Positions 867 through 48,546 of a stretch of 48,809 bases of DNA are shown here, piece by piece. A program made the translations under genes and the position numbers. Each line of letters starts with the position of its first letter. Within the stretch, counting starts at the first letter, position 1. Location: assembly GCA_963844965.1 (NCBI GenBank), contig CAWJQC010000001.1:1-48809 (forward strand). Direction: 5' to 3'. The notes under the pieces were generated by a model. It was not told where the DNA came from. It saw only the letters and a program-made list of their open reading frames with translations, and did not search any database. This DNA comes from an uncultured bacterium. Lineage in GTDB: Bacteria > Patescibacteriota > Minisyncoccia > UBA6257 > 2-01-FULL-56-20.

Positions 867-1229
867 ATGAAACTCGACGATCTTGAAGTTTATAAACTGG
901 CCGGAGAAATTTCCGACGAGTCATGGTTGATTTACGAAAAGTTAAATTGGCGCGACAGGAAAATTATAGGAGATCAGTTTATCCGCGCCGTGGATTCTAT
1001 TGCCGCCAACATAGCTGAGGGCTTCGGCCGTTTTCATTACCTGGACAAAAATAAATTTAACTATAACGCACGCGGTTCGCTATTTGAATCAAAGCACTGG
1101 ACGAGTTCACTCTTTAAAAGGAATTTAATAACCAAGAAACAATTTGATTCCTTGGACCATAAACTTAATAATTTAGCCGTCAAACTAAACAACCTTATCG
1201 TTTCCACGCGGCGTCAATTGAGTAAATAA
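867..1229 (+). CDS. four-helix-bundle protein (TIGR02436-like; '23S rRNA intervening-sequence protein' family)
   Basis: 120 aa; motif IRAVDSIAANIAEGFGRFHYLDKNKFNYNARGSLFESKHW characteristic of this family. Confidence 0.75.
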   Translation: MKLDDLEVYKLAGEISDESWLIYEKLNWRDRKIIGDQFIRAVDSIAANIAEGFGRFHYLDKNKFNYNARGSLFESKHWTSSLFKRNLITKKQFDSLDHKLNNLAVKLNNLIVSTRRQLSK

Positions 1230-4057: not shown

Positions 4058-4151
4058 GATGTTCCCCGGCTTGCGTTCGGCGTCTGCAGTTTCTCGCCTT
4101 TGGAGCACCGGCAAAAAGCAATTCCCCCGATCCAAGTCGGGGGAATTTGTC

Positions 4152-8924: not shown

Positions 8925-9040
8925 TATCCAGAATCTAGAAATTAGAAAGTAGAGAATAGAATAAAGAAAACCAAGATTGAATTAGTTGACTTTCACCTTC
9001 TACTTTCTAGATTCCATTTTCTATTTTCTTGCTCTTTTCG
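8925..9040. repeat. AT-rich palindromic intergenic element (TAGAAAGTAGA / TCTACTTTCTA; AAATAGAAAATAGAA / TTCTATTTTC family)
   Basis: ctagaaattagaaagtagag ... ccttctactttctagattccattttctattttc; related copy at 28441-28560. Confidence 0.45.
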
Positions 9041-11935: not shown

Positions 11936-12073
11936 CTAATCCGACCCCCTTTCAAAGAGGAAATATAAGGCTTTGTGAAGAAAACTGCCCCCAGTGTACT
12001 CTAAATTAAGATATATGTCAAGTGCTATGGGCACTTGACTTTTTTAAACAGTATGTTATTATATAGGAATCTT

Positions 12074-15000: not shown

Positions 15001-16621
15001 CGTACCGTCAGGACTTGCTGTTTCAACGACCACGTTGAGTTCGGTGTCGCTCACTTGGACCGCCTCTACGGACAATGTCGGTGTCACGGGATACGAGATC
15101 TACCGCAACGGCACGCAGACCGGAACTTCCACCTCGACCTCTTTCACAGATACCGGTCTTACGGCCTCAACTACATATTCCTATGCCGTCTCTGCCTATG
15201 ACGCAGCCGGCAACAACTCGGCAACCTCAACCTCTGTGAGCGCGACAACTTCGGCAGCGAGTAGCGGCGGTGACAGCGGCGGAGGTAGTGCTTCAACAAC
15301 TGTCACACTTTCTGCGATTACTGGGCCAACCGTCACGGTTGGAGACACTGCCGCCTTCACTGCAAACGCAACGGACTCTGATGCCAGCGGCACCGTTTCA
15401 TACGGCCTTACCGGCGCTCCTTCCGGTGCAACAATTGACGCATCATCTGGTGCGTTCTCGTGGAACACAACCGGAGTCACACCTGGCACATACACCTTCT
15501 CAGTGACTGCAACCGGCAGCACCGGTGGCTCTGATAGTAAGGACGTCTCAATTACGGTAAATGCGGCACCTGTGCCCGCGACGAGCACATTGAACGTTAC
15601 AGTGTTGGTTGACAATTCGCAGGGCGGCTTGGCAACCCCCTCCGACTTCACGGTCAGCGTTTATGCAAGCAATCCGAGCACATCCACCTTCCCGGGAAAC
15701 GCTTCAGGCACTACTGTGACCGTTGATGAGAATACTACCTACAGCGTGAATATTTCTTCGCTGAATGATTATTCTTCCGCTAATAACGGTAGTTGCGCTG
15801 GCACCACCGCGCCCGCCGGCAATTCAGTAAACTGTTCATTCACGGAAACATTCTTGCCCCTTATCTCACAACAGGGTTCGTCTAACCCGACCACTGATTC
15901 CATCACCGTAACCTGGACCACGGACCATCCGGCGACGAGCCGCGTGATCTACGACACCGTGTCGCATCCAACTTTGGGAGCGGCGCCGAACTACGGATAC
16001 GCCTATTCCACGGATGAGGACTCCACGCTTCTTACGAGCCACAGCGTGACTGTCTCCGGTCTTGCGGCTGGCACGACTTACTACTTCCGTGCTGTTTCCC
16101 ATGGCTCTCCCGAAACTGTAAGCGATGAATTCACCGGAACGACAACTTCGCCGGCGAGTAGCGGCGTGGGTAGTGCTACGGTCAGCGGCGGTGGCGGAGG
16201 GGGTGGAGGCGGCGGTGGTGGCGGAGGAGGAGGTGGTGGCGGAGGATATATTTCTCCTACCGAGCCAACCCAATCTCCGGCGTCAACTCAAAACGCCGCA
16301 GTGGACCCGAATGCCACACTCCGGTCTTTGCTGGAAAAGCTGCAAATCTTACTCGCACAACTGAACTCTAAATTGAAGTCGCAATTTACTCGCGATCTTA
16401 CCATAGGGTCGTCGGGAGATACCGTTCGCGTTCTTCAGACGTTCTTGAACATCAACGGTTATCCCATCGCCAGCACCGGTATCGGCTCTCCAGGCAACGA
16501 ATCCGCCTATTTCGGAGTGAAGACCGCCGCCGCTCTAGCTAAGTTCCAGGAGGTACACGGCCTTCCCCCAACCGGATACTTTGGCTCACTCACGAGGCAG
16601 ATAATAATGGGAATAAAGTAA
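12074..16621 (+). CDS. giant cell-surface protein: about 14 NHL repeats, Ig-like and Fn3 domains, 22-residue poly-Gly linker, C-terminal peptidoglycan-binding (PG_binding_1) domain. ORF track start 12035; ATG 12074 preferred because it follows a TGTTATTAT -10-like element and gives a signal peptide
   Basis: Repeated NNRVLVF(N/S) NHL motif; SLSWTASTD..GYKIYRDG Fn3; GDTVRVLQTFLNINGYPIASTG...LAKFQEVHGLPPTGYFG PG-binding. Confidence 0.7.
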   Translation: MTYQHIYKAILSRFTATLFLAALAVFLGFIPVHAAIYNASGLLGHIDQSGNPIYTSGGMNNGPNAKGLYVPADTALDAVNHRLFVVDTNNARVLVFSLTSADGISSVTPSYVIGQSDFVSADAATVSQNRLAYPVGLAYDSANSRLFVSDQVNNRVLVFNVAPGTIANGENASYVLGQGNFSSNSANTTQNGLSTPYGLAYDATTTRLFVSDQTNNRVLVFNVAVSSMSNGMNASYVLGQANFTSSAAATKSSGLNTPYGVMVDGNSRLFVADSGNNRVLYYSVSSITNGKAATRVLGQGTSFTTSAAATTQSGLSAPQGLAYDSKSNRLFVADDGNNRIMVFSVGTGNFTSGMNASYVLGQTSFTAAAANISQNGLSAPYGLAYSSANSRLFVADQTNSRIMLFNAATSTISNGENASGLFGHTDQNGNPLYTIGEPNNGPSAQGFNYPYGTTLDAVNHRLFVSDQTNNRVLVFALDSNNNISATTASYVLGQSSFTGSSPSTSQGGLSAPHGLAYDAANNRLFVSDTSNNRVLVFNVAPGTIANGENASVVLGQSSYTTSDPAVTQNGLNAPYGLVYDPSNGRLFVADNSNQRVMVFNTIANGANAAFELGQSDFVTSNSAASQSGLSGPADLAYDSSTSRLFVADQINNRIMIFNVSTSTMANGKNAAHVLGQADFTASNVNTTQGGLSGPYGLAYDATRGQLYVADVNNSRILVFNAIVSALADGENASNVLGTADFVSVGGGTSQSSVNSDNSLADDTASNRLFAVDGPDNRVTVFSLVRVNAASLPGGTVGAAYSATITASQSQGTLSFAIASGSLPPGLSLNASTGAISGAPTVATTSVFVVEADDAFSTGSFFDRATFSITVSGGDTTPPSVPTGLMATGTTTSTISLSWTASTDSGGSGLAGYKIYRDGTQVGTSTAPSATFTDTALTASTTYAYTVSAYDNAGNVSAQSSAINATTQSLSDTTPPSVPSGLAVSTTTLSSVSLTWTASTDNVGVTGYEIYRNGTQTGTSTSTSFTDTGLTASTTYSYAVSAYDAAGNNSATSTSVSATTSAASSGGDSGGGSASTTVTLSAITGPTVTVGDTAAFTANATDSDASGTVSYGLTGAPSGATIDASSGAFSWNTTGVTPGTYTFSVTATGSTGGSDSKDVSITVNAAPVPATSTLNVTVLVDNSQGGLATPSDFTVSVYASNPSTSTFPGNASGTTVTVDENTTYSVNISSLNDYSSANNGSCAGTTAPAGNSVNCSFTETFLPLISQQGSSNPTTDSITVTWTTDHPATSRVIYDTVSHPTLGAAPNYGYAYSTDEDSTLLTSHSVTVSGLAAGTTYYFRAVSHGSPETVSDEFTGTTTSPASSGVGSATVSGGGGGGGGGGGGGGGGGGGGYISPTEPTQSPASTQNAAVDPNATLRSLLEKLQILLAQLNSKLKSQFTRDLTIGSSGDTVRVLQTFLNINGYPIASTGIGSPGNESAYFGVKTAAALAKFQEVHGLPPTGYFGSLTRQIIMGIK

Positions 16622-18376: not shown

Positions 18377-19480
18377 ATGGACACCGCGAACATCTTCAAA
18401 ACCTTCAAATTTTTCAAACAGAGCGTTTTTCCCTCGTATCTCGGTGTTGATATCGGCACGACCTCCATAAAGGTTGTGGAGGTGAAGCCGGGCAAGCAAC
18501 TGCCGGAAGTTGTGAATTACGGATTTCTTGACTCAGGCGGCCAGCTCTCGCGCGCGAACCAAGCGTTGCAGACGAGCACGCTTAAACTTTTTGAGAAAGA
18601 AGCGGCAGAACTTCTGAAGTTGTTGGTTGGAGAAATGAAGACCAAAAGTACGGATGCCTTCGCGTCGCTGCCGACCTTTTCGGTTTTTATGACCGTTCTC
18701 GATTTCCCGGAAATGAAAGCCGGCGAGATAGAAAGGTCCATGGTGTTTCAGGCGAAACAATATATCCCCTCGCCGATCTCGGAAGTTGCGCTTGATTGGA
18801 TGAAGGTCGGTGAATATAAGGACGACAAGGGATTCACGCACCAGCAAATACTTTTGATATCCGTGCCGCAGGAAAGTATCAAGAAGTATCAGACGATCTT
18901 CAGGCTTGCCGGATTGAACTTGAAGGCGCTTGAGATTGAAAGTTTGAGCCTTACGAGAATTTTTGGAGGGACCGATCTCTCGCCGGCCATTGTGGCGGAT
19001 ATCGGCAGCCGCTCCACGAACATTATTTTTCTTGACAAAGGGCAGTTGAAATTCAACAAGCAGAGCGATTTTGCCGGAGCGTCGCTCACTCAGGCCCTCT
19101 CGGAGAGTTTGGGTATAAATTCGCTTCGCGCGGAAGAGCTGAAGAAGGAACGGGGGGTCGCGGGGACCGGTCCAAACTACGAGTTATCCACAATAATGAT
19201 GCCCCTTTTGGATGCTATAATTAACGAGATAAAGAAGGCGCGCTACAGTTACGGGGAACAGTTTCCTGGAGCGGCGAAGGCCGAAAGGTTGATCATTTCC
19301 GGCGGCAGCGCCAACCTCATTGGTGTTGAGAAATATTTTGAAAGAGAGTTTGGCCTGCCGGTTATAAAGGCAAATCCGTTCGCGAAGTTTGAGTATCCGC
19401 CGGCAATTGATTCAATGGTACCGGAACTCAATCCGATAATGAGCGTAGCGCTGGGACTGACGCTAAGAGAATTCATTTGA
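18377..19480 (+). CDS. pilM: type IV pilus assembly protein PilM (actin-like ATPase fold)
   Basis: 367 aa, YLGVDIGTTSIKVVEV and DIGSRSTNIIFLDKG motifs. Confidence 0.85.
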   Translation: MDTANIFKTFKFFKQSVFPSYLGVDIGTTSIKVVEVKPGKQLPEVVNYGFLDSGGQLSRANQALQTSTLKLFEKEAAELLKLLVGEMKTKSTDAFASLPTFSVFMTVLDFPEMKAGEIERSMVFQAKQYIPSPISEVALDWMKVGEYKDDKGFTHQQILLISVPQESIKKYQTIFRLAGLNLKALEIESLSLTRIFGGTDLSPAIVADIGSRSTNIIFLDKGQLKFNKQSDFAGASLTQALSESLGINSLRAEELKKERGVAGTGPNYELSTIMMPLLDAIINEIKKARYSYGEQFPGAAKAERLIISGGSANLIGVEKYFEREFGLPVIKANPFAKFEYPPAIDSMVPELNPIMSVALGLTLREFI

Positions 19481-19578
19481 AATTTCTAATTACCAATTTC
19501 TAATTTCTAAATAAATCCCAAATTACAATTTCCAAATTGTTTAGAAATTAGGTATTAGAAATTGGAAATTTAAAGTAC
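19481..19578. repeat. AT-rich intergenic palindromic element (AATTTCTAATT...CCAATTTCTAAATAAAT...TTGTTTAGAAATTAGGTATTAGAAATTGGAAATTT)
   Basis: Homologous to the element at 20841-20968. Confidence 0.5.
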
Positions 19579-20840: not shown

Positions 20841-20968
20841 TAATGAAAATTTCTAATTTCTAATATCCAATTTCTAAATAAATTTTAATATCCCAAATCA
20901 CAAAATTTATAATTTTAGCCATTAAGATTTTGATATTGTTTAGAAATTAGGATTTAGAAATTGGAAAT
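20841..20968. repeat. second copy of the AT-rich intergenic palindromic element
   Basis: aatttctaatttctaatatccaatttctaaataaat...ttgtttagaaattaggatttagaaattggaaattt. Confidence 0.5.
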
Positions 20969-28449: not shown

Positions 28450-28560
28450 ATTCAGAAAGTGGAAAATAGTAAATAGAAAATAGAAAAATCAATGCCAGCT
28501 TTAAATAGGATGAGAAGTAAAAGAAAAAAATCACCACCCTCTACTTTCTACTTTCTCCGG
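28441..28560. repeat. AT-rich palindromic intergenic element related to 8925-9040 (AAATAGAAAATAGAAAA ... CTCTACTTTCTACTTTCTCC)
   Basis: Shared TAGAAAGT/ACTTTCTA and ATAGAAAATAGAA motifs. Confidence 0.4.
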
Positions 28561-34390: not shown

Positions 34391-35115
34391 ATAATTCGCC
34401 GGTGTTGGTGGGAACTCCAATTTATGTTAACGGGCGCGTCTGCGGGGGCTATACCTACACGAGCGGGGGCGGCGGGTCAGCTACTATCGCCGGTGATCCA
34501 GATCATACATGCGACACCAGAAGCGGATCAACCAAGGCGGGACTCACGATGATTGCCATCGCGCCCGTACTTCCTACTGTTAATATTTATCCCGATGCCG
34601 CTTCCGTTCCTTTGAATAAGGCCACGAATATCCATTGGAGTTCCGAATATACCACCGATTGCTCAATAACGATCATGGCCAACGGCGTGACCACGCCGAG
34701 CGGCTGGACAGTAAACCCGAACGTTGATGGTTCTCACACGACCGGAAATTTAACTTGGCCAACGACTTATACAATAAACTGCGACGGCAGTTTCGGCGGC
34801 AAAGTGACCATGTCGGCCACCGTGAGTATTGACCCGCCAGATATGAACCTGCAAGCCAATCCCACTTCTATTGATGTGTGTGCTTCTCCGATCATTGCCT
34901 GCGGCGGTGATCCCAACACTTGCGGACGCTCAGTTGTAAGTTGGGGTCCGATTATAAATGTCACAAGTTCCAGTAATTGTAAACTTTCCGGAAATTGGTC
35001 CGGTACGTTGTCGTCGCCCGATATTTCACTTTCACCAGGCGGTGTTCTGTCTCCGTCATATTACCCTTCCGGTATCTCTCAGCTTGACGGGTGTTACCTC
35101 AACAAGAACGTATAA
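34378..35115 (+). CDS. Cys-containing Ig-like repeat protein; probably the N-terminal part of the giant gene below (frame switch needed near 35050-35115)
   Basis: Contains the same TYTINC..G..G..TV.V domain signature as the downstream gene; the domain continues across the stop codon in another frame. Confidence 0.45.
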   Translation: MAFVNNSPVLVGTPIYVNGRVCGGYTYTSGGGGSATIAGDPDHTCDTRSGSTKAGLTMIAIAPVLPTVNIYPDAASVPLNKATNIHWSSEYTTDCSITIMANGVTTPSGWTVNPNVDGSHTTGNLTWPTTYTINCDGSFGGKVTMSATVSIDPPDMNLQANPTSIDVCASPIIACGGDPNTCGRSVVSWGPIINVTSSSNCKLSGNWSGTLSSPDISLSPGGVLSPSYYPSGISQLDGCYLNKNV

Positions 35116-38100
35116 TATGACCTGCTACGGCCCTGGCGGGAGTTTTTCCGAAACTGCCACCGTGACCATTAATCCCGCGACAGTGGGGCTTACTCCCAAC
35201 CCTGGGTCCGTTGATTTGTATAAAACATCCGTAATAAATTGGGGCATAACTAACGTTACGACTCTTAACTCCTGTGCTCTAGGGGACGCTTGGGGAAGCA
35301 GTTCTCCTCCGCCTCTTCACCCATCGTCTTGCTCCGGTAATTATACGACTCCGTCATTGGTTGCGCCCACGACCTATTCCATCGGGAGCTGCACCGGGCC
35401 TGGAGGAAAACAGAATCCCGATCCCGAATCTGTGACGGTCGGCATAAATGACCCGAATATAAACATGGCTGCTGTTCCGGCCCAGCTCCACCTTAGTGAG
35501 TTAAGCGGCGGCTCGGTTATAAAATGGGGCAGGGACGCGGTTGGCACAAATAGTCCCAGTGATGACATCGGTAATGTCACAAGCACGGCTAATTGCACGC
35601 TTTCCGCCATTCCGCCTGCGAGCGGCTGGTCCGGCACGCTCTCGGCTTTCCACGGCACCTACGCGACGGGACCGCTATCATCAAGCAATCTTACATACAC
35701 ATATAATATAACCTGCAAGGGAGCGGGACAGAACGGGGGAACTACCACCGGGAAAGCTATAGTGTCCGTCGCTCCGCCCGAAGTTTCCATCAATGCGAGT
35801 TCTACTACGATCAGTCCCGGTTCTTCCACGGTAATAACTTGGAACTCTACGGATACCACCGCCTGCGTGGAGTCGTGGGTGAACAGCACGACAGGTAATC
35901 CTAACTGGGCCAACAGTCTGTCTAACAGCGTAGGGACAAACACCGGCCCTCTCACGGACAACACGACGTATTCAATAAGTTGCACTGGCGCCGCCGGCGC
36001 AACCGCGCAAGATTCCGTTACGGTGAGCATGAATACCGGCGCGCCGACCATTACTGAATTCAAGGCCACGCCGCCCGCCGTGTCGCCCGGCGACTCCACC
36101 ACAATAACCTGGAGTTCCACCAACGCCACCAATTGCAATGTGTCGTCCACCACAGACGGCGTAAACTGGACGGCCGTTGGGAGCGGTACCTCCAACACCA
36201 CAGGGGTTTCAAGCGGCCCGCTTACGAAAGATACGACTTATGAAATCACTTGTCACGGTCCCGGCGGAGATACACAGCGGTCAATCACGGTCAGGGTTGG
36301 GAATTTCATATGCCCGGATATGGGTGCGATCAACGTAAGTTCCACGAATTCCTGGGCGGACAATGACCATCCGAACAATTTATTGCCCGGTGATTACGTT
36401 ACAAGTTCGTGGCAATTTACGCCTCCCTCATCGGTTGACCCCTGCGATCAGGGTTGCGCGAATTTGTCCCATAACGGATACACGAATCTTCCGGCGAGCG
36501 CGGCGGCTCCGGCAGATTGCCCGTATACACTTATCCCCGTTCAGGGCAGCGCCGGACCGCTCTATGCCTTGAAAAAAGTTGATACGAAACTTGCCGCCAT
36601 AGGAGAAGGCGATCTTGGCTTGAGCTGGCTCAAGAACTCGTTGCTCAATATTGCCAAAGCATTTGTTGTTTGGCCGGGCACATCCACTTCTTCTTACACC
36701 CAGGGTCTCAGTCCGTCCGCTTATTACGATGACTGGCTTGTTTTCTCGGATCCCGCCAAAACCAACTCCAGCCACATCAACTTCAGTGTGGGCACTGGTT
36801 CTTCTACCGCTCTTACGATCAACGGCACCACGATTGGCAGTTTCACCGTCGGCCAGAAATGGACGCTGGACATAACAAGCAACATGCCGAAAACAAATTT
36901 CAGTTTCTGCGTCAACTCTAACTCCAGCTGTAACCCCTATACCACGGATGCGAACGGCAACTGGACCCTAAGCGGCGATTTTCCGCTTTCCACTGTCGGT
37001 TCCTGGAGCGAGTGGGCGGTGTTCCCGGGCGGCGTCAATTCCGATACCATCAGTTTCACCGTGGGCGCCGCTCCCTTTGCCGCTCTTATGGTCAATACCA
37101 CAACTATCAACGCCTTTGGTTTCGGCCAGACCATAACCTACGCGCTCGCCTCAAACATTCCTAAGACGAGCTTTGAAGTGTGCTATAAGCTTGATGGCGT
37201 GGCGCAGCCGTGCGTCAACTCAAGTTTTACGGACCCGAATTATCAGACGGACCCGAGCGGCAATTGGAGCACGCAGCAGACGCAAGACTTATCTACTACT
37301 GGTGCCGCCGGCCATTCTTACGAGGACTGGTTTGTCTTCCGGGATTCCGACCAGACCAATTCCAGCCACGTCAATTTCATCGTGAGCCCCGGCACTCTCG
37401 CGATCAACGGCGTTACTGCTGGTAGTTTTACGGTGGGCCAAGCATGGACACTGAACGTAACGAGCAGTATGCCGAACACTAGTTTCACCATTGAATGCAG
37501 CATGGATAGCGGTGCGCCATTTGCCTGCGATAGCGGCACCACTGACCCGAACGGCAACTGGACCACTCTAGGCGGCGATACCTTTCCCGCTTCCGTCGCT
37601 GGTTCTTGGGAAGAGTGGGTAGTCTTCTCAAACGGCGCCAGCTCTACCCATATTAACTTCAAAGTGAGCCAGGGTCCTACCGCTGCTCTCACGATCAACG
37701 GCGTTACGACCGGCAGTTTTACCGTCGGCCAGAAATGGACGCTGAACATAGCAAGCAATATGCCGAGCACCAATTTCAGCTTCTGCGTCAACTCCGGTTC
37801 TAACTGCAGACCATACACCACTGACCCGAACGGTAACTGGAGTCTGAGCGGCACTTTCAATTCCGATTCCATCGGTTCCTGGAGCGAGTGGGCGGTGTTC
37901 CCGGGTGGCCCCAATTCCAATTCTATCAGTTTTACTGTGGGCGCCGCTCCATTTGCCGCTCTCACGATTAACGGCGCTACGTCTGGTAATTTCGGCGCAA
38001 ACCAGGCGTGGATTCTGAACATAGCAAGCAATATGCCGAGCACCAATTTCAGCTTCTGCGTCAACTCCGGTTCTAACTGCAGACCATACACCACTGACCC

Positions 38101-39430
38101 GAACGGCAACTGGAGTCTGAGCGGCACTTTCAATTCCGATTCCATCGGTTCCTGGAGCGAGTGGGCAATATTCTCAAATTCCGCCCAAACCTATTCCAAT
38201 CTCATCAATTTCAGCGTGGCCTCTATTTCCCCGGCCACTCTCACGATCAACGGCGCCGCTGCCGGCACTTCCGGCGTCGGCCAGACCGTAACATACACGC
38301 TTGTTTCGGGTGTACCCAGCGCGAGCTTTAAAGTGTGCTATGACTACAATGGCGTAACGCAGCCCTGTTTGACCGATCCAAAATATTTCACAGATGCATA
38401 CGGTAATTGGAGTACGAAGCAAACTTTAACCCCCAATACTGCCGGCTCGGCCGCTCTTTTCAATATTGAATGGGACCCGCTCGCGGAGATAACTGTGACC
38501 TCTACTTCGCCGATTCCTCCGCCTTCCTGTCCGGACGGTCAGATTTGCTTTAACGAGACAAGTACGGCGGAAGGAACGGTCGCGGTATCAAATAATGGTG
38601 CCGACCATTCGCAACTTGATTGGTCCGTAAGCGACCAATCTTCCGCCAATTTCCCCAGTTGGCTTACGGTTTCGCCGTTGTCTTCCACCTCCACTGGCTC
38701 CACCGGACCGATTAACAAGGATGGCCAGCCGCAGACCGTGAATGTTGATTGTGATACCAGTTCCGTTCCGTTCGGTACACAAACTTCAACTGTGCTCGTT
38801 TTCTCGGGTATGACGCACGGTATTCCTGGCCAACAAGCCGCCGATTCTCCCCGAACCGTCACCGTTAACCTTTCTCTTGCGATACCTCCTGTTACGATAA
38901 ATCCGGCTAACGCGACTACCACCGTTTATACACCCGTCGCATTCACGGTCGCCGGGGGCATGGGCACCTCGTATTCCTGTTCCGTTTCCGGTCCGGCGTA
39001 CGTGAGCTGCGCGGTCCTCGGCGAAAACATTCCTTTCAATATCAGTTTCCCGGCTGTTGGAACTTATACCATCACGGTTACCGATACCGACCCCACGAAC
39101 ACGACGGGCGACAATACTGCTACCGCTTCCGTTGTTGTTGCGGTGGTGCCCGCGAGTTGCGATTTCTCCGCATCGGCTGGCGGCTTATCAACCAACTGCA
39201 TTCTCTTATCGGCATCCACGACCCTCTCCTGGTCGTGCGAGTATGTTGATCCCGTCAAGGGTTGCACGCTTAACGGCTCGGCCGTTGCATCTAGCGGGAG
39301 CCGTATAGTATTCCCGACGTCCACGACGGTTTACACGCTCCATTGCGCCGGAGCAGGAGGCGGCCAGGACGCGATAGTTCCACTGCAGGTTTGCGTGAGA
39401 ACGCAGAGTTGGAAAGAAATTCCGCCATAA
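34958..39430 (+). CDS. giant secreted adhesin-like protein built from about 100-aa Ig-like repeats (TY.I.C.G.GG....TV.V; ..NC.VS.) and a second repeat family (..ING.T.G.F.VGQ.WTL....MP.T.F.....S..C.PYTTD.NGNW..SG.F....GSWSEW.VF). Start uncertain: ATG 35117, or fused with 34378..35115
   Basis: Repeats read in translation; near-identical DNA tandem copies 37737-37900 / 38017-38180. Confidence 0.6.
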   Translation: MSQVPVIVNFPEIGPVRCRRPIFHFHQAVFCLRHITLPVSLSLTGVTSTRTYNMTCYGPGGSFSETATVTINPATVGLTPNPGSVDLYKTSVINWGITNVTTLNSCALGDAWGSSSPPPLHPSSCSGNYTTPSLVAPTTYSIGSCTGPGGKQNPDPESVTVGINDPNINMAAVPAQLHLSELSGGSVIKWGRDAVGTNSPSDDIGNVTSTANCTLSAIPPASGWSGTLSAFHGTYATGPLSSSNLTYTYNITCKGAGQNGGTTTGKAIVSVAPPEVSINASSTTISPGSSTVITWNSTDTTACVESWVNSTTGNPNWANSLSNSVGTNTGPLTDNTTYSISCTGAAGATAQDSVTVSMNTGAPTITEFKATPPAVSPGDSTTITWSSTNATNCNVSSTTDGVNWTAVGSGTSNTTGVSSGPLTKDTTYEITCHGPGGDTQRSITVRVGNFICPDMGAINVSSTNSWADNDHPNNLLPGDYVTSSWQFTPPSSVDPCDQGCANLSHNGYTNLPASAAAPADCPYTLIPVQGSAGPLYALKKVDTKLAAIGEGDLGLSWLKNSLLNIAKAFVVWPGTSTSSYTQGLSPSAYYDDWLVFSDPAKTNSSHINFSVGTGSSTALTINGTTIGSFTVGQKWTLDITSNMPKTNFSFCVNSNSSCNPYTTDANGNWTLSGDFPLSTVGSWSEWAVFPGGVNSDTISFTVGAAPFAALMVNTTTINAFGFGQTITYALASNIPKTSFEVCYKLDGVAQPCVNSSFTDPNYQTDPSGNWSTQQTQDLSTTGAAGHSYEDWFVFRDSDQTNSSHVNFIVSPGTLAINGVTAGSFTVGQAWTLNVTSSMPNTSFTIECSMDSGAPFACDSGTTDPNGNWTTLGGDTFPASVAGSWEEWVVFSNGASSTHINFKVSQGPTAALTINGVTTGSFTVGQKWTLNIASNMPSTNFSFCVNSGSNCRPYTTDPNGNWSLSGTFNSDSIGSWSEWAVFPGGPNSNSISFTVGAAPFAALTINGATSGNFGANQAWILNIASNMPSTNFSFCVNSGSNCRPYTTDPNGNWSLSGTFNSDSIGSWSEWAIFSNSAQTYSNLINFSVASISPATLTINGAAAGTSGVGQTVTYTLVSGVPSASFKVCYDYNGVTQPCLTDPKYFTDAYGNWSTKQTLTPNTAGSAALFNIEWDPLAEITVTSTSPIPPPSCPDGQICFNETSTAEGTVAVSNNGADHSQLDWSVSDQSSANFPSWLTVSPLSSTSTGSTGPINKDGQPQTVNVDCDTSSVPFGTQTSTVLVFSGMTHGIPGQQAADSPRTVTVNLSLAIPPVTINPANATTTVYTPVAFTVAGGMGTSYSCSVSGPAYVSCAVLGENIPFNISFPAVGTYTITVTDTDPTNTTGDNTATASVVVAVVPASCDFSASAGGLSTNCILLSASTTLSWSCEYVDPVKGCTLNGSAVASSGSRIVFPTSTTVYTLHCAGAGGGQDAIVPLQVCVRTQSWKEIPP

Positions 39431-43035: not shown

Positions 43036-43485
43036 TCAGCTCGGCTTCCCCGTTTGGTTCATGACGAAGCTTCTCCGTGGCACCACGAGTTCACTTGCCG
43101 TATCTTCCGTTACCGGCACCATCTTCTGTTTGTTCCGTATTTCCTGGATGTATTGTGGCAGATATTTGCCGATGAGATTACTCAGTTCCTTGAAATAACT
43201 CCCGCATAGAGAACAATCGGAAAGATGTTCAAGCGTTTGCAGTGCCAGCCTGCTTTTTCCGGAGGAGAAAATTTTTGCCAGCTCTTCAGAGGTTTCTTCG
43301 GAAAATTTGTTTATTACCGCGGTCTGACGTAAGGCGGCGAGCACCAACAAATCCCTGAAGCACTTTCTTGACGGCCAGAGAACTATTTCCTCCATGCCGT
43401 CGGCGGTTTTTGCCATGCCCTTTTGCTGGCATCCGTCAAGCCTTATCCATGTTGTCTGGAGACATGCCCTATTGATAGACAGCAT
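43036..43485 (-). CDS. hypothetical protein with HL..C..C motif (LEHLSDCSLCGSYF); possible paralogue of the 43992-44614 gene
   Basis: 149-aa ORF; alternative start MAKTADG at 43416. Confidence 0.45.
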   Translation of the reverse strand: MLSINRACLQTTWIRLDGCQQKGMAKTADGMEEIVLWPSRKCFRDLLVLAALRQTAVINKFSEETSEELAKIFSSGKSRLALQTLEHLSDCSLCGSYFKELSNLIGKYLPQYIQEIRNKQKMVPVTEDTASELVVPRRSFVMNQTGKPS

Positions 43486-44012: not shown

Positions 44013-44614
44013 GCGTTTGCCGTCAAGCAATATCGTCAAGGTTGGAGCTCTGTAAGGAAGCGAAGCTTCTACGGCCTTGAAGTAGTCAATGGGGTTGATC
44101 CTTGAAAGAAAAACTTCCCTTCTTTTGTCCGCGGTGACCGGCCTTATTTCCGCGTTCGTTTTTATCATTGCCGCGTATTCTTTTTGATGTTTGGACATTA
44201 TTTCGCACATGTCTTGATTTCGCACATGTCTTGATAATATTCGGCGCAACTTGGGCACTCCTCCAGATGTTCCCTGAGAGGGTCGAGAAGTTCCGGTTCT
44301 ATTTCCGTTTTGAAGCGCTGGATTGCTTTATTCGCATAACCGACCCTCTCAATCTCCATATTGCGTATCAGAGTGAGGAGGGCGTAACTGAACATCTCCC
44401 GTTGCGGGCAATCTTCGTAGCACAGACGCGAGGTAAGAAAGTAGGTTTTGCGTTTCGCGAGAAGGTAAGAAAGCCAAAATAAACAACCCCCGCATTTTCT
44501 GGCGTGTTTTACGAGGTCGGCGTCAACCGGCCTCGTCAGATTGACGGCACGGAGCACCTTAGCCAACTGCGTGCATTCCGATTTTCGCGGCCTTGCCTTT
44601 TGTGTTTTTCGCAC
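43992..44614 (-). pseudogene. zinc-finger-motif protein (..LREHLEECPSCAEYYQDMCEI..) split into ORFs 44198..44614 and 43992..44258 by a perfect 17-bp tandem duplication
   Basis: Removing one copy of TTTCGCACATGTCTTGA restores a single 202-aa ORF; both ORFs encode QDMCEI from the two copies. Confidence 0.5.
44201..44234. repeat. perfect 17-bp tandem duplication (TTTCGCACATGTCTTGA x2)
   Basis: Read directly. Confidence 0.9.
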
Positions 44615-44762
44615 AGCCCCTCCTTTTTATGGAATCTCAATGACCGTCTAACTTTATTTTAACGCCGATTGCGGATATTCGCTAATCATTGCTTCGTCTT
44701 GGGTCTCGGCTGCTGATTTGTTTTTTTCTCGGATTTTTATTAAATTTAGATTGTGCGGCCGT

Positions 44763-44830
44763 GGTGTAGTTTACCCCGTTGGATCGCGTAGCGATTCCAT
44801 CGGGGCCCGGTTAACACGTCCCCCTGCTTG
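44763..44830 (+). other. pseudo-tRNA: tRNA-Asp 5' half (GCGGCCGTGGTGTAG .. CGGTTAACACGTCCCCCTG) with a 37-nt hairpin insertion in the D-loop and no 3' half
   Basis: Aligned by eye against the intact tRNA-Asp 110 nt downstream. Confidence 0.45.
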
Positions 44831-44874
44831 CCCCGCACCAAATTTATAAAATTATGAGATTTCGAGCGGTTCGC

Positions 44875-44949
44875 GCGGCCGTGGTGTAGCCTGGTTAACA
44901 CGTCCCCCTGTCACGGGGAATATCACGGGTTCAAATCCCGTCGGCCGCG
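44875..44949 (+). tRNA. tRNA-Asp (anticodon GUC); flanking sequence extends the acceptor helix to about 17 bp (AGCGGTTCGCGCGGCCG / CGGCCGCGCGAACCGCT)
   Basis: GCGGCCG-TG-GTGT-AGCCTGGTTA-ACAC-G-TCCCC-CTGTCAC-GGGGA-ATAT-CACGG-GTTCAAAT-CCGTG-CGGCCGC-G. Confidence 0.85.
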
Positions 44950-45024
44950 CGAACCGCTGGAACGCCTTCGTTTCAAATATTCGATTTCAGCAATAGCACT
45001 AAATGTAAAAATTTGGTGCGGGTT

Positions 45025-45062
45025 ACGGGGAAGGTTGTGGGTTCAAATCCCATCGCCCGCGC
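45025..45062 (+). other. degenerate tRNA-Asp 3'-half fragment (TACGGGGAAGGTTGTGGGTTCAAATCCCATCGCCCGCGC)
   Basis: About 80% identical to the 3' half of the intact tRNA-Asp. Confidence 0.4.
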
Positions 45063-45089
45063 AAAGACAAAGACAAGGTGGGGGATAAA

Positions 45090-45122
45090 GGGAAGATCAC
45101 GGGTTCAAATCCCGTCGGCCGC
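45090..45122 (+). other. exact 29-nt copy of the tRNA-Asp 3' end (ATCACGGGTTCAAATCCCGTCGGCCGCGC), candidate att-site remnant; an inverted 14-nt copy (GACGGGATTTGAAC) lies at 45179-45192
   Basis: Direct repeat of tRNA positions about 47-75, read directly. Confidence 0.5.
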
Positions 45123-45129
45123 GCTAAAA

Positions 45130-45164
45130 CCAAAAGACGATGACCTTGTGCCATCGTCTTTTGG
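45130..45164. other. perfect 13-bp stem-loop (CCAAAAGACGATG-accttgtgc-CATCGTCTTTTGG)
   Basis: Read directly; possible terminator of the tRNA cluster transcript. Confidence 0.4.
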
Positions 45165-45348
45165 TTCCTAATGTAGTCGACGGGATTTGAACGGGGATGG
45201 GGTCGGTCAGACCGCAGTCAGAGGGTATCGCGGACGCGGTCAAGGAATCGCGGTTTTCGTTGCCGTTGCTGTATGCTATACTGTAATTAATAGTTCCAAC
45301 TCTTGCGCTTCTCTTGTTCTTGGTGTATGCTCGAAAAACATGAAAATG

Positions 45349-45666
45349 GAAAAAGTCCTCCAAAAAGAAGTTTATAATCTTCAGTCGTTGTTTCCTAAAG
45401 AAGTAACCGTTTCTGTGCGTCGTTCGGAAGACGGCGGTTTTGCCGCCGAGATTTTATCTTACCCGCGAACATTTACCGAAGCCGATACTTTTTCAGAGCT
45501 TATTGAAATGATCAACGATGCGCTGTATACCTACTTTGATGTTCCAAAAAAATTCGTTTCTTTTATGCCCACCTATCTTCCTCCACTCGATTCTTCGGTG
45601 AGAGACCTCATCGGTCTCCCCGTACACATGAAACCGGAAAAAATTACATTAGAATTGGCGAGGTGA
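45349..45666 (+). CDS. hicB: HicB-like antitoxin (UPF0150/HicB N-terminal fold)
   Basis: 105 aa, FAAEILSYPRTFTEADTFSELIEMINDALYTYFD; GTGA overlap with downstream hicA-like gene; TGCTATACT -10-like element at 45281-45289. Confidence 0.55.
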   Translation, partial: EKVLQKEVYNLQSLFPKEVTVSVRRSEDGGFAAEILSYPRTFTEADTFSELIEMINDALYTYFDVPKKFVSFMPTYLPPLDSSVRDLIGLPVHMKPEKITLELAR

Positions 45667-45890
45667 AACCGATAGAAATCAAAACAACGGATTGTTCTGG
45701 TAACAACCTTATCCGAGCCGCAGAGCACTGCGGCTTTCTCGTTCAACAGGGCAAGAAGCATGTGAAAGTAAAAACCGCAGAAGGAAGGTTTGTTGCCATG
45801 ATTCCGAGGCATAGCCATATTAAGCGAGAAACCGCGAAAGGCATCGCTGAGGCGCTGCAAAAGTTTGGAGGCAACGTGGCAATGAACTAA
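45663..45890 (+). CDS. hicA: HicA-like toxin (YcfA family mRNA interferase)
   Basis: 75 aa, GFLVQQGKKHVKVKTAEGRFVAMIPRHSHIKRETAKGIAEAL. Confidence 0.6.
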   Translation: MKPIEIKTTDCSGNNLIRAAEHCGFLVQQGKKHVKVKTAEGRFVAMIPRHSHIKRETAKGIAEALQKFGGNVAMN

Positions 45891-45937
45891 GCCACCCCGC
45901 ACCAAGCCCGACTCGTTTTACATAAGGCAGAATCAAA

Positions 45938-45965
45938 CCCCCACCTTTTCGGAAAAAGGTGGGGG
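45938..45965. repeat. 28-bp perfect palindrome CCCCCACCTTTTCGGAAAAAGGTGGGGG between convergent genes
   Basis: Read directly; family recurs at 47423-47596 and 48272-48345. Confidence 0.7.
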
Positions 45966-45988
45966 TTGAGTTTGCCTATCTGCCTGTC

Positions 45989-46957
45989 TTATTTGCCGTT
46001 GCCGGTAAAAAAGCTGACGCAATCTCCCTGGTTCTTAAATGGCGAATGATCGGGGTGAAACCAATTTCGCCAACCGTCACCTTTGCATTGGTCCTTATCG
46101 GTCGGCACAGTTGGCACAGTAACGTCATCGCTTATCAGTATTGTCGCGCCTCCACCATTGACCCACACCGAAAAGGTTGTTTTTGGCAGGGTGATGTCCG
46201 CTCCCGTGAGCTTTACATGCCAGTGGCTAGCGCCCTTCTTATCGGTTACGAAGGTGAATGGCTGGACCGCTGATGTAAGTAATCCCGGCCAACCCGTACT
46301 ACCACTGGAAAGTTTTGCAGTTCCGCTTTCGGTGTACCACGTGCCCGTTCTACCGCCACCGTAATTGTCACTCCATATACCACTGAGAGATCCATTAGCA
46401 GCTATGGTGCCAGACATTTGCATTATTGTCCCTATGGCCCCAAGTGTATAGGTGCATGTGAAAGAGAAAGTGTTTCCGGTTATCACAATATTTGATACAT
46501 TCCATTCATAGGCATATGATGGCCCCGGTGAGGGATAATCACCAGAACCGCCTGACTTGGTGAGCGTCATATCATAGAGCGATGGATTTGGGCCACCGCC
46601 GTTAACTGCGTACATGACTGTATAACTACCCGTCAAATCCGCTGGAACATAAGCTGTGTATGGCCCCGAAATATAAACCGTGTAGGTCGTGTCGGGAAGC
46701 AAATCATTCATTACGCCAGTGACTCCGACGTCAATTTTGTCGTACGGTTGATGTTGATTAACGAACAGTTTAGATGCCTTATCAGAACCCGGAATGTCCT
46801 GTGAACCGTACGGAGGAACGGGCATAACCGCTCCGGAGAGATTCCATTTAACCTCTTGCGCTCCGGCCCATTTTCCGATTGGTGTTGCGGCCGAAGCCAC
46901 TCCTGCCAAAACCAATAAGGAAGCAATGGCGATTGCGGGAAAAATAAATCTTTTCAT
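45989..46957 (-). CDS. secreted hypothetical protein (signal peptide)
   Basis: 322 aa, MKRFIFPAIAIASLLVLAGVASA; GAAAGGTCGG motif 25 nt upstream of start. Confidence 0.55.
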   Translation of the reverse strand: MKRFIFPAIAIASLLVLAGVASAATPIGKWAGAQEVKWNLSGAVMPVPPYGSQDIPGSDKASKLFVNQHQPYDKIDVGVTGVMNDLLPDTTYTVYISGPYTAYVPADLTGSYTVMYAVNGGGPNPSLYDMTLTKSGGSGDYPSPGPSYAYEWNVSNIVITGNTFSFTCTYTLGAIGTIMQMSGTIAANGSLSGIWSDNYGGGRTGTWYTESGTAKLSSGSTGWPGLLTSAVQPFTFVTDKKGASHWHVKLTGADITLPKTTFSVWVNGGGATILISDDVTVPTVPTDKDQCKGDGWRNWFHPDHSPFKNQGDCVSFFTGNGK

Positions 46958-47422
46958 AGTTTTAATTCAATTATTGTTTTGCCGACCTTTCAACTTCTAT
47001 TGTAGAAGTTGTTCCATTGATAGACACTATATCAGCCCCAATTTTTTTGCAATAGGGCGCGGACGCGAAAGCGCGCGCGCAAGCGGGCGGGCATTCTTGC
47101 GGGTGAATAATAAAAATAGGGAAACAACGCGCATTGTCTTTGGTTTCCTCGCGTCGTTTCCCCGAGACAGGAGGATAAACTAACTCAAAGTAATTATACT
47201 ATACTGTAGAGAGGCGGAAAATAGCAATAGGCGGCTTGCGGGCAAGAAAGCCGGGAAGTAGGGGAGGTAATCACAGGGAAACGAAACCCTTTGCGGGATT
47301 TCACTGATTACCGCCCCTGCTTCGGGCCTTCGGGTTGCCGCTACTTATCCCCACACTTTCCACAGGAGGATATTAACCCCGCGGGAAGGTGTGGGGATTT
47401 ATTACCACGAAGCCAGCCGCAA

Positions 47423-47596
47423 GTCAACCCCCACCTTTTCGGGAAAAAGACGGGGGTCAACCCCCGCCTTTTCGGAAAAAGACGGGGGTCAACCCCCGCC
47501 TTTTCGGAAAAAGATGGGGGTCAACCCCCGCCTTTTCGGAAAAAGATGGGGGATTGACCCGCCTTTTCGCGCATCGCGCAAAAGGCGGGGGTTGAC
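47423..47596. repeat. tandem array of about 4.5 copies of a 31-32-bp unit (GTCAACCCCCGCCTTTTCGGAAAAAGACGGGG), each a pair of small hairpins; terminal variant with CGCGCATCGCGC loop; no spacers
   Basis: Read directly; ORFs 47291..47609 are translations of the repeat. Confidence 0.75.
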
Positions 47597-47655
47597 CGGG
47601 TTCGGTTAATTTTATATGATATCAATATAAAATTTATAAACTTAACTAAAGTCAT

Positions 47656-47986
47656 ATGAAATATAAGAACACGCTCCAAAAAGGGTCCGCGCGCTTCATC
47701 GTTTTTCGCGAGGGGGATACGTGGTACTGCGTTTGTCTGGAATTCAATATTGTTGAATCGGGAAGCACCCCCTCAGGAGGCGCTGCTTCTTTTGGTAGAA
47801 GCGGTGGAAGGGTATTTAGAATCGGCTCGGAAGATAAAAGCCAGACCCGGTATTTTGAACCAGAAATCAGACCCCGAGTACGAAGAATTATGGGATGCCG
47901 CCGAAGAACATAAAAAGGTTCCGGCAAAGGAAATTTTTTCTTTTGGCAGATTGAATCTTGCCGGAAGAACCTTTGCCGCCGCATAA
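47656..47986 (+). CDS. hicB: HicB-like antitoxin, frameshifted at a C5 homopolymer (47771-47775): ORFs 47656..47913 and 47750..47986
   Basis: N-part ARFIVFREGDTWYCVCLEFNIVESG, C-part in the other frame QEALLLLVEAVEGYLESARK. Confidence 0.45.
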
Positions 47987-48002
47987 CAAATCGAAACTCC
48001 GT

Positions 48003-48236
48003 ATGCCAAGAGGTCTGTACAACTGGACGGCGGAGGATGTCGTCCGTTTTCTCAAAGAAAAAGGATTTGTATTGAACTATACTAAGGGAAGTCATTATTT
48101 CTATATCGGGAGATACGGCGGAGCGTTTCGCCAAGTATGCGTGCCTTTTCATGGCAGCCGAGTGATCAAACCGCGGACACTCAAAGGTATGATTCGCCAA
48201 TCCGGCATTCTGAAAAGTGAGTGGCTGGCAGGGTGA
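48003..48236 (+). CDS. hicA: HicA-like toxin (YcfA family). ORF track starts at 47958
   Basis: WTAEDVVRFLKEKGFVLNYTKGSHYFY..GAFRQVCVPFHGSRVIKPRTLKGMIRQSGI. Confidence 0.6.
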   Translation: MPRGLYNWTAEDVVRFLKEKGFVLNYTKGSHYFYIGRYGGAFRQVCVPFHGSRVIKPRTLKGMIRQSGILKSEWLAG

Positions 48237-48271
48237 TTGGGCGCGAACGCTAATCCGACCGACACGAAATC

Positions 48272-48345
48272 GACCCCCACCTTTTCGGAAAAAGGTGGGG
48301 GTGAACCCCCACCTTTTCGCGCATCGCCCAAAAGGTGGGGGTTGT
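48272..48345. repeat. two further palindromes of the GGGGG/CCCCC family (CCCCCACCTTTTCGGAAAAAGGTGGGGG and CCCCCACCTTTTCGCGCATCGCCCAAAAGGTGGGGG)
   Basis: Read directly, immediately 3' of the second hicA. Confidence 0.7.
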
Positions 48346-48546
48346 GTTTCCGGGGCCAAATATTCGGTTATACACCGTCCCCGCAAATTCACGCTATTCG
48401 CGGAGCTATAATGTAAACGTAGCTGCGCAAAGGTCGAAAGCTTAATCATTAAAACATGGAGAAAAAAACAACAGACCAGCCGGCAGGGCCCGAGCAGGTC
48501 AATTGACGGGGGAGAGGGCGCCTACCGCGCGTTTGAGGAACGGAAG

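Follow-up and report, generated by a model that had tools for sequence, protein, structure and literature searches.

A spacer-less tandem array of REP-like palindromic hairpins upstream of a hicBA operon in a Patescibacteria contig

The window analysed here is a complete contig of 48,809 bp from a metagenome-assembled genome (MAG) of Patescibacteria (Paceibacteria-type); compared with the NAD-ligases of named CPR MAGs, its own reaches no more than 72% identity. Its gene content includes a type IV pilus operon, ligA, tRNAs, a comFC-like gene, a sigma factor and ABC transporter genes, and from its ligA, tRNAs and type IV pilus operon the contig is chromosomal. The region that concerns us runs in order through a hicBA-1-like gene pair, a single hairpin, ORF 45989-46957 on the minus strand, 460 nt of non-coding sequence, a tandem array of hairpins (47423-47597), the hicBA-2 operon and a pair of hairpins. 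The hicBA-1-like operon (45340-45890, plus strand) includes a 75-aa ORF at 45663-45890 that is a weak match to HicA, with a Pfam score of 20.4 bits, below the cutoff of 27. The hicBA-2 operon (47656-48236, plus strand) carries a HicA toxin gene at 48003-48236, preceded by a putative antitoxin ORF split across two frames, 47656-47913 and 47750-47986. With 48.2 bits, hicA-2 is the sole 'hic' gene above the Pfam cutoff, so that of the two hicA labels given in the earlier reading made from the sequence alone (the sequence-only reading), that of hicA-2 stands and that of HicA-1 is weak. Both upstream 'hicB' ORFs are without a Pfam match, and are designated putative hicB by position only.

ORF 45989-46957 encodes a secreted-type protein of 322 aa without Pfam domains. 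Its 70% homologue adjoins a tyrosine integrase in a defence island, and no related hairpins were found in the loci of its homologues (70% and 66% identity). The array is located between the divergent starts of this ORF and of hicB-2. The 460-nt stretch upstream of the array is non-coding and highly structured (folding z = -5.8), and contains a -10-like motif at 47195-47208. A 14-nt motif, TATRCTATACTGTA, is common to positions 45272 and 47195, with no extension to longer similarity. Immediately past the array the sequence is AT-rich (47598-47655), and a promoter-like site on the plus strand at 47592-47620 (TTGACC-17 nt-TATGAT, 10/12 consensus matches) lies 36 nt before the hicB-2 ATG. The -35 hexamer TTGACC of this site, identified by consensus match only, coincides with the outer flank of unit 5, the last of the array, and an AT-rich palindrome at 47610-47632 overlaps the -10. 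The order ligA then tRNA-Asp(GTC) was found in five of the six relatives scanned for tRNAs. Here the tRNA-Asp gene (44875-44950), upstream of both hicBA modules, is followed by three tRNA-Asp fragments: a 3' half at 45015-45062 that matches the allele of another lineage (95% to locus L004), a 3' half at 45077-45125 that is a copy of the resident 3' half, and an inverted fragment at 45178-45192. There is also a broken tRNA-Asp 5' half at 44754-44830. Such a set of fragments is what repeated integration at a tRNA gene usually leaves behind.

The array itself consists of four direct units of 32-33 nt and a fifth, variant unit, arranged head to tail. Tandem Repeats Finder (TRF) reports 47423-47552 with a period of 32, 4.0 copies, 96% matches and a score of 230, and in a pattern scan the 28-nt core CCCCCRCCTTTTCGGAAAAAGRYGGGGG gave five matches in the 48.8-kb contig and none in 100 shuffles. 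The head-to-tail array described in the sequence-only reading is therefore real, with its unit corrected from 31 bp to 32 nt (33 nt in unit 1). Unit 1 (47423-47455, plus strand, 33 nt) reads GTCAA-CCCCCACCTTTT-CGGG-AAAAAGACGGGG and scores 20.8 bits in cmsearch; it has an A in its left arm, as do the copies at 45938 and 48274, and one additional G in the loop. Unit 2 (47456-47487, plus strand, 32 nt, 47.5 bits) has the left arm CCCCCGCC and the right arm GACGGGGG, with one C.A mismatch between them on the plus strand that is a G.U pair on the minus strand. Unit 3 (47488-47519, plus strand, 32 nt) has the right arm GATGGGGG, and unit 4 (47520-47551, plus strand, 32 nt) is identical to it in sequence. 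The right arms thus carry GAC in units 1 and 2 and GAT in units 3 and 4. Unit 5 (47552-47597, plus strand, -24.6 kcal/mol, 45.8 bits) is a hairpin of a second type, its apex CGCGCATCGCGC being a (C)GCGC-ATC-GCGC extension on the same basal stem; that the final unit differs at the loop had been noticed from the letters and holds. The left arm of unit 5 is degenerate (GATTGACCCGCC), and its right arm AAAAGGCGGGGGTTGACC complements the left arms of units 2-4 perfectly (18 nt, 100%). Unit 2 differs from units 3 and 4 by one nucleotide and unit 1 from unit 2 by two changes, a pattern of divergence that fits stepwise duplication. Since units 1, 2 and 3/4 are distinct, at least three unit types are required in the underlying reads. 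Against Rfam, at gathering thresholds and at E <= 10, the array gave only chance miRNA-type hairpin matches.

A covariance model run at full sensitivity with filters off found eight members of the family in the 48.8-kb contig, all of them within 2.4 kb (45933-48346). All eight are in one orientation and fall into two subtypes, with a plus-strand loop of CGGA (type 1) or C-GCGC-ATC-GCSC (type 2). The copies are palindromes of 30-40 nt, every one intergenic, with 13-bp arms spaced by 4 nt in type 1 and by 12 nt in type 2. Both hicBA operons, which are unrelated to each other, have hairpins after them, and the second also has hairpins in front. A single type-1 hairpin at 45936-45967 (plus strand, 50.9 bits) has a perfect 14-bp stem and a CGGA loop, with a folding energy of -25.4 kcal/mol on the plus strand and -24.3 on the minus strand; it lies 45 nt past the hicA-1 stop, the convergent ORF 45989-46957 has its stop 21 nt away, and the hairpin has tails that are moderately T-rich on either strand. 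Past hicA-2, at a distance of 36 nt from its stop, a type-1 hairpin at 48273-48302 (plus strand) is joined through a GA linker to a type-2 hairpin at 48304-48343 (plus strand, 60 bits), the pair folding at -50 kcal/mol. The first of these is identical to 45937-45966 at 30 of 30 positions (100% over 30 nt). The relatives that had been placed near 45938 and 48272 were thus recovered, at 45938 and 48274; the further statement that a single relative sits after each hicA applies to hicA-1, while the copy after hicA-2 is a type-1/type-2 dimer. This dimer is about 86% identical to array units 4 and 5, so that a direct repeat of about 75 nt brackets hicBA-2. The feet of the hairpins are conserved as AA(n)TC(A/G)-A...T-TG(A/T), abutting copies have exactly T(C/G)AA between them, and the tails of the window hairpins are just moderately T-rich (TTGAGTTTGCC, TTGTGTTTCCGG). 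A terminator-like hairpin on the plus strand at 47347-47398, 25 nt before the array, reads ATCCCCACACTTTCC-N22-GGAAGGTGTGGGGAT followed by TTTATT; by inspection it may be a diverged relative of the array family, with a model score of just 7.9 bits.

The sequence-only reading had divided each unit into two hairpins. Folded in this way, GGGGGTCAACCCCC contributes -8.7 and CCTTTTCGGAAAAAGA -0.9 kcal/mol, about -9.6 kcal/mol together, whereas one long hairpin within the unit reaches -14.8 to -16.5 kcal/mol on the plus strand (-20.8 on the minus strand), so the double-hairpin unit is the weaker fold. The unit is best read, on predicted energies, as a single GC-clamped hairpin of 12-13 bp with the general form A-C5-N-CC-T4 / loop / A4-GG-N'-G5-T, which in the window is C5-R-CC-T4 / CGGA / A4-(A)G-R-Y-G5. 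The element GGGGGTCAACCCCC is the junction between adjacent units. As palindromic units stand head to tail, a second register is possible in which pairing is between the right arm of a unit and the left arm of the one that follows (A5-GACG5-UCAA-C5GCC-U4), and this inter-unit hairpin, formed of GGGGGTCAACCCCC with flanking A and T runs, has a folding energy of -16.2 kcal/mol on the plus strand and -21.3 on the minus strand; in these predictions the two registers are about equal. The whole array can also be folded as one super-hairpin of about 60 bp, at -72.5 kcal/mol on the plus strand and -92 on the minus strand. The single hairpin at 45936-45967 has no adjacent unit and the long hairpin is therefore its sole option, and covariation among metagenome relatives also backs the long stem. 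The mismatches within units favour folding of the minus strand; a promoter scan found no minus-strand promoter for the array.

Relatives of the unit were sought in other genomes and metagenomes. The strict unit pattern (exact or IUPAC) had no match in GTDB species genomes, JGI metagenomes or IMG/VR, and blastn against phage and plasmid collections gave no match to the unit. The covariance model, applied to 1.35 Mb of related CPR loci and to three loci with homologues of ORF 45989-46957, gave no convincing hit, the best E value being about 0.05. A looser pattern, in which two positions per arm and the apex were left free, was run on metagenomes and returned 91 stretches, with 45 distinct loci in the C5...G5 register. 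That some columns of this set do not vary is partly an effect of the search pattern, and only the free positions, the apices, the flanks and the genomic positions serve as evidence. The free stem position is Watson-Crick in 44 of the 45 loci (TA 32, GC 5, AT 4, CG 3), against 25% expected by chance, and at the outermost A-T pair complementarity is kept in 36 of 45. In an alignment of 37 sequences the covariation score was 0.149; shuffles gave 0.079, and with slid partners the score did not exceed 0.064. C.A versus G.U mismatches in the relatives were not used to assign the strand of function, because the search pattern varied one arm only. The apex CGCGCTTGCGC, with a G(CUUG)C-type loop, is common to many loci at unrelated places, and the short flanks ...TTA and GCTCAAT on either side of the hairpin are common to several; such common apices and flanks at unrelated loci make the T-variant, at least, a genuine dispersed repeat.

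The neighbours of these relatives are housekeeping genes (RNase J, SecA, S2, L21, infA-rpmJ, aminoacyl-tRNA synthetases and pilus genes), and the hairpins mostly lie 15-75 nt past a stop codon. By crude ORF calls, 20 relatives lie between co-directional, six between convergent and two between divergent genes, and their orientation is without bias (11 versus 8). A directional T tail was not detected in the 20 co-directional relatives (3.85 versus 3.50 T per 10 nt, p = 0.84). The carriers, uncultivated contigs of Patescibacteria type, are distant from the window organism: in the comparison with locus L135, PilT is 58% and PilC 39% identical. Most loci have one hairpin, and two or three abutting, non-identical hairpins were found at L091 (the infA/rpmJ gap), L102, L138 and L171, of which L102 contains the closest dimer, with 81% identity across 70 nt. 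Local density is eight copies in 2.4 kb here versus about one per fetched locus elsewhere, and within this family it is fair to call the strict tandem periodicity unusual, as had been done from the window alone.

The array is a real one. It belongs, as a new family member, to the broad class of small extragenic palindromic repeats, and its head-to-tail amplification without spacers is unusual. Among its nearest analogues are the REP and BIME elements, to which the sequence-only reading had compared it. As in REP, the repeat is an extragenic imperfect palindrome of 20-40 nt at gene ends, occurring singly, as dimers or in arrays, with compensatory changes in the stem, and plausibly transcribed and acting as an RNA hairpin. 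The resemblance holds by analogy in these respects (gene-end position, clusters, compensatory changes), but within this contig does not extend to the diagnostic features. In REP sequences one end bears a conserved GTAG or CGTC (PMC3733652), whereas the hairpins described here end in A...T with TCAA/TTGA-like flanks, and CGTC occurs only within the stem of units 1 and 2, on the minus strand. REPs are dispersed in many copies over a genome and flank a cognate RAYT (Y1/HUH transposase) gene; in the 48.8-kb contig no RAYT gene was found and all eight copies lie within 2.4 kb. The copies are direct and head to tail, unlike the alternating REPs of BIMEs. A canonical REP was rejected on the missing tag, the lack of a RAYT gene in the contig and the direct orientation. 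The host also differs, being represented by a Patescibacteria-type MAG instead of the Enterobacteria and Pseudomonas in which REPs are placed. No description of REP-like repeats or of terminators in Patescibacteria/CPR was found in the searchable literature.

The BOX element of Streptococcus pneumoniae, boxA-boxB(n)-boxC, offers another parallel, in that a hairpin-forming module of about 45 nt is tandemly repeated in variable number. In the array, likewise, an internal hairpin module (type 1, n = 4) is repeated and a different module (type 2) closes the series, but the units are of 32 nt, the array has no boxA-like 5' module, and there is no sequence similarity. Intrinsic terminators, bidirectional ones included, share with the window hairpins a stable GC-rich stem 36-45 nt past a stop codon, a position between convergent genes (at 45936) and, in the inter-unit register, the succession of A-tract, GC stem, tetraloop and U4. 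They differ in that the intra-unit stem of the array has its T and A runs inside, and in that the same sequence recurs at unrelated loci. A canonical intrinsic terminator was rejected, as the family is without a directional U tail and U4 follows in the inter-unit register only.

Short palindromic tandem units of about 32-36 nt also recall CRISPR and TIGR arrays, and TIGR systems are present in CPR bacteria. TIGR arrays are built of 36-nt units in which 8-12-nt edge and loop repeats alternate with two variable spacers of about 9 nt, and TIGR-Tas requires a Nop-domain Tas protein (PMC12045711). The units of the array are near-identical, differing at just 1-3 positions, without a spacer-like variable block and without a Nop-domain Tas neighbour, and a TIGR array was therefore rejected. 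That the array is not a CRISPR, as already stated in the sequence-only reading, is borne out by units that abut without spacers at a period, 32 nt, equal to the unit length, and by the scanned ORFs of the contig (the two largest, 12035-16621 and 34958-39430, not among them), which contained no cas gene. Integrase, Y1-transposase and Nop/Tas genes were likewise not found in the contig. The array is a fairly ordinary REP-like or terminator-like hairpin stack and not a guide-RNA array.

Several more specific roles were tried and rejected. A DNA uptake sequence is discounted by the absence of single arms elsewhere in the 48.8 kb. Sequestration by Shine-Dalgarno / anti-Shine-Dalgarno pairing (AAAAGGAGGGGG / CCCCCTCCTTTT) does not agree with window copies that have A/T or G/C at that position, nor with distances from hairpin to downstream start that range from 0 to more than 500 nt. 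The hairpin is also not part of the toxin-antitoxin (TA) cassette, since the closest homologues of HicA-2 (80-87% identity, on five other contigs) have no related hairpin upstream or downstream.

We consider that there is about an even chance that the hairpin is a REP-like gene-end element which has been amplified locally by slippage, and which in the array forms a stacked RNA-hairpin barrier or insulator upstream of the hicBA-2 promoter while supplying its -35 box. On this account each copy, once transcribed, would form a highly stable hairpin by which the mRNA upstream of it is terminated or protected, and five such hairpins in a row, or the super-hairpin of about 60 bp, would constitute a transcription barrier. 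This barrier would keep transcription from the 460-nt structured stretch and from the opposite strand out of hicBA-2, and the TTGACC flank of the last unit would serve as the -35 box of the hicBA-2 promoter. Growth of the array would result from slipped-strand mispairing or from unequal recombination between identical palindromic units, and the 32-nt periodicity would then be a by-product of unit length with no functional spacing. Of the three functions put forward in the sequence-only reading, the terminator or insulator is the best fit to the position data; its canonical form is not, as the wider family lacks the directional U tail and a canonical Rho-independent mechanism is accordingly unsupported. 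The other two, a protein-binding array and a recombination hotspot, found no positive support. We note that the array follows a gene end only if the structured region upstream is a transcription unit, for which the -10-like motif and the folding are suggestive. Eight copies in 2.4 kb, together with the identity at 30 of 30 positions behind unrelated operons, would point to active copying, which is unexplained by a purely functional account.

In a second explanation, the hairpin is a selfish REP/MITE-like palindrome moved in trans by a HUH/Y1 transposase (RAYT- or IS200/IS605-type) encoded elsewhere in the genome. The palindrome would be cut and inserted beside TCAA/TTGA at the hairpin foot, and each copy would recreate the target, giving head-to-tail arrays; any terminator effect would be incidental. 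The eight copies in one orientation, the 30/30 identical copies behind two unrelated operons, the conserved foot with abutting copies joined by exactly T(C/G)AA, and the metagenome relatives at unrelated loci with conserved short flanks are all as expected of such an element, and RAYT processing is credited with REP arrays and dimers (PMC3733652). Against this, no Y1/HUH transposase was found in the contig, nor among the top 25 families listed for 67 neighbours of the relatives, and a terminal GTAG or CGTC tag is missing from the hairpins. In this contig the family is clustered rather than dispersed, extra copies near known ones are rare elsewhere, and the clusters formed by REPs (BIMEs) alternate in orientation whereas the copies here are direct. 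We therefore regard a selfish palindrome as rather unlikely, and note that it concerns the origin of the repeat and is compatible with the barrier account given above. A further explanation is mis-assembly: the true locus would have one type-1 and type-2 pair, and the extra units would come from short-read assembly over a palindromic repeat. The whole window is a single contig assembled from a metagenome, unit 4 repeats unit 3 without a change, and the array, as a near-perfect palindrome of 130-175 nt, is hard to assemble. However, units 1, 2 and 3/4 differ at defined positions, which calls for at least three distinct units in the reads, the array lies 1.2 kb inside the contig, and abutting hairpins occur independently at 48273-48343 and in other assemblies. 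Of all the explanations considered, such an artefact appears to be the least probable.

Recombination sites would give the hairpins a different meaning. In this case they would bound cassettes in the manner of integron attC or Xer/pdif sites, stitching hicBA-1, ORF 45989-46957 and hicBA-2 together in an integration hot spot, with the array as a pile-up of sites remaining from cassette loss. Hairpins flank each of three modules of 0.7-1.5 kb, the direct repeat of about 75 nt (type 1 plus type 2) brackets hicBA-2, the region adjoins a tRNA-Asp gene with a foreign tRNA-Asp 3' half, and a tyrosine integrase lies beside the 70% homologue of ORF 45989-46957. By inspection, GTTGAGT at 45965 fits GTTRRRY at 7/7 positions and AGTCAAC at 47421 fits RYYYAAC at 6/7, and it is to these outer flanks that the likeness to attC is confined. 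An attC site is an imperfect hairpin of roughly 57-141 nt in which R''/L''-L'/R' boxes go with extrahelical bases and with a central spacer that stays unpaired, and Xer/dif (pdif) sites have two 11-bp arms around a fixed central region of 6-8 bp. The hairpins are perfect, bulge-free palindromes of about 30-40 nt with stems of 13-14 bp, shorter than attC and lacking both the spacer and the extrahelical bases, and their 13-bp arms are 4 or 12 nt apart, which misfits a crossover region of fixed length; structurally, the hairpins are unlike attC and dif sites alike. A cassette array in one orientation is also at odds with ORF 45989-46957, which is on the opposite strand. Furthermore, the covarying free stem position indicates pairing rather than duplex recognition, relatives stand between core genes (infA-rpmJ) and before rplU, no integrase is encoded in the contig, and HicA-2 homologues elsewhere are without the sites. 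It is very unlikely, then, that the hairpins bound cassettes in either of these known manners. We see an equally slim chance that they are single-strand recombination or transposition sites of an undescribed cassette-shuffling system of Patescibacteria, attC-like or HUH/Y1-mobilised. If so, the tRNA-Asp integration hot spot would be where TA and other small modules are assembled, repeated insertion or excision would have left the spacer-less array as a stack of sites, and both the GTTRRRY/RYYYAAC-like feet and the direct repeat bracketing hicBA-2 would be functional. The hairpins would matter more as recombination or transposition sites, because cassette-type gene shuffling is uncharacterised in these reduced genomes. 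Finally, the array might bind protein as duplex DNA, as a centromere-like site of the kind of sopC of F, an iteron-type origin or a TA operator array, with the 32-bp period, about three helical turns, placing the sites on one face of the helix. In centromeres of the sopC type and in iterons, direct repeats follow one another without spacers, each with an inverted repeat inside it, and TA modules often accompany plasmid maintenance loci. The array has this architecture, the AT-rich stretch 47598-47655 directly after it, TA genes adjacent, and a last unit that overlaps the promoter-like site. Set against these are the chromosomal nature of the contig (ligA, tRNAs, type IV pilus operon), the occurrence of the same palindrome singly after genes, here and elsewhere, and the compensatory changes, which indicate single-strand base pairing. 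There is no adjacent par, rep or DNA-binding gene, and an iteron origin or sopC-like centromere was rejected for want of rep or parAB genes in the contig; as a TA operator, the AT-rich palindrome at 47610-47632 over the -10 is the more usual candidate. A protein-binding array is accordingly more doubtful still.

If the reading as a locally amplified gene-end hairpin is correct, its practical value is modest: it puts on record, for Patescibacteria, a family of GC-clamped palindromes at gene ends, and one that can amplify to spacer-less arrays which repeat-finding software might take for CRISPR- or TIGR-like ones. It would also flag a tRNA-Asp integration hot spot bearing two hicBA modules. With regard to the rest of the contig, the remaining intergenic hairpins are each unique in sequence, and the ordinary terminator-like hairpins at 696-714 and 4120-4147 likewise use C5...G5 stems.

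Hairpins related to those of the array recur at metagenome loci, where the T-variant ACCCCCTCCTTTTCGCGCTTGCGCAAAAGGAGGGGGT is repeated at unrelated housekeeping loci (L081, L092, L115, L155, L141 and others). Its flanks are short and conserved, with ...CTTA on one side and GCTCAAT on the other, and the GCTCAAT side faces the direction of transcription in four of five cases. This pattern suggests an oriented, dispersed element of approximately 55 nt. On another metagenome contig (L091, 2463-2574), three different hairpins of the same design abut one another between infA and rpmJ, which places them within a cluster of ribosomal-protein genes.

Upstream of the array, the non-coding stretch at 47205-47405 (plus strand) is predicted to be very strongly structured (-95 kcal/mol, z = -5.8), with a long hairpin at 47248-47330 (+), a terminator-like hairpin followed by TTTATT at 47347-47398 (+), and two C(UUCG)G-type loops. 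The stretch is preceded by TATACTATACTGTA, and the same motif is present upstream of hicB-1 at 45272. It had no match in Rfam, and no similar sequence was present in any fetched locus. We consider it a candidate small RNA gene. Downstream of the array, the AT-rich near-palindrome TTTTATATGATATCAATATAAAA (47610-47632) overlaps the predicted -10 element of hicBA-2 (TATGAT), and is a candidate toxin-antitoxin operator of a more conventional kind than the array. Upstream of hicA-2, the ORF for the putative antitoxin (47656-47986) is divided between two reading frames, one covering 47656-47913 and the other 47750-47986, and the frame changes close to a C5 run at approximately 47770; the ORF is either a frameshifted pseudogene beside an intact toxin gene or the product of a sequencing error. 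Neither of the putative HicB proteins of the contig matched a Pfam family.

The tRNA-Asp(GTC) gene at 44875-44950 has tRNA debris on both sides, the whole region spanning 44754-45192. This debris consists of a broken 5' half (44754-44830), a 3' half from a foreign allele of tRNA-Asp (45015-45062; 95% to the tRNA-Asp that follows ligA at locus L004), a copied 3' half of the resident tRNA-Asp (45077-45125), and an inverted T-arm fragment (45178-45192). The region looks like an integration site that has been used repeatedly; no integrase gene is present within the contig. As tRNA-Asp directly follows ligA in relatives, the 1.9 kb that separates the two genes here may also be an insertion. Two small minus-strand ORFs without a Pfam match lie between ligA and tRNA-Asp, at 43036-43485 (…CSLCGSYFKEL…) and 44198-44614 (…CPSCAEYYQDM…), and may be paralogues, since in both a C-x2-C motif occurs near similar sequence.

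A second class of intergenic structure, unrelated to the array hairpins, consists of inverted blocks of tandem heptamers, for example (AATTTCT)4 ... (AGAAATT)4, which form long AT-rich hairpins. These structures, at 8936-9029, 19477-19574, 20848-20963 and 28454-28556, lie between genes of the pilus operon and beside tRNA-Gly. An ORF at 867-1229 (+) gives a match of 81.8 bits to PF05635, the '23S rRNA intervening sequence protein' family. This ORF is not located within an rRNA gene, and AT-rich tandem repeats (740-866 and 1229-1284) border it on both sides.
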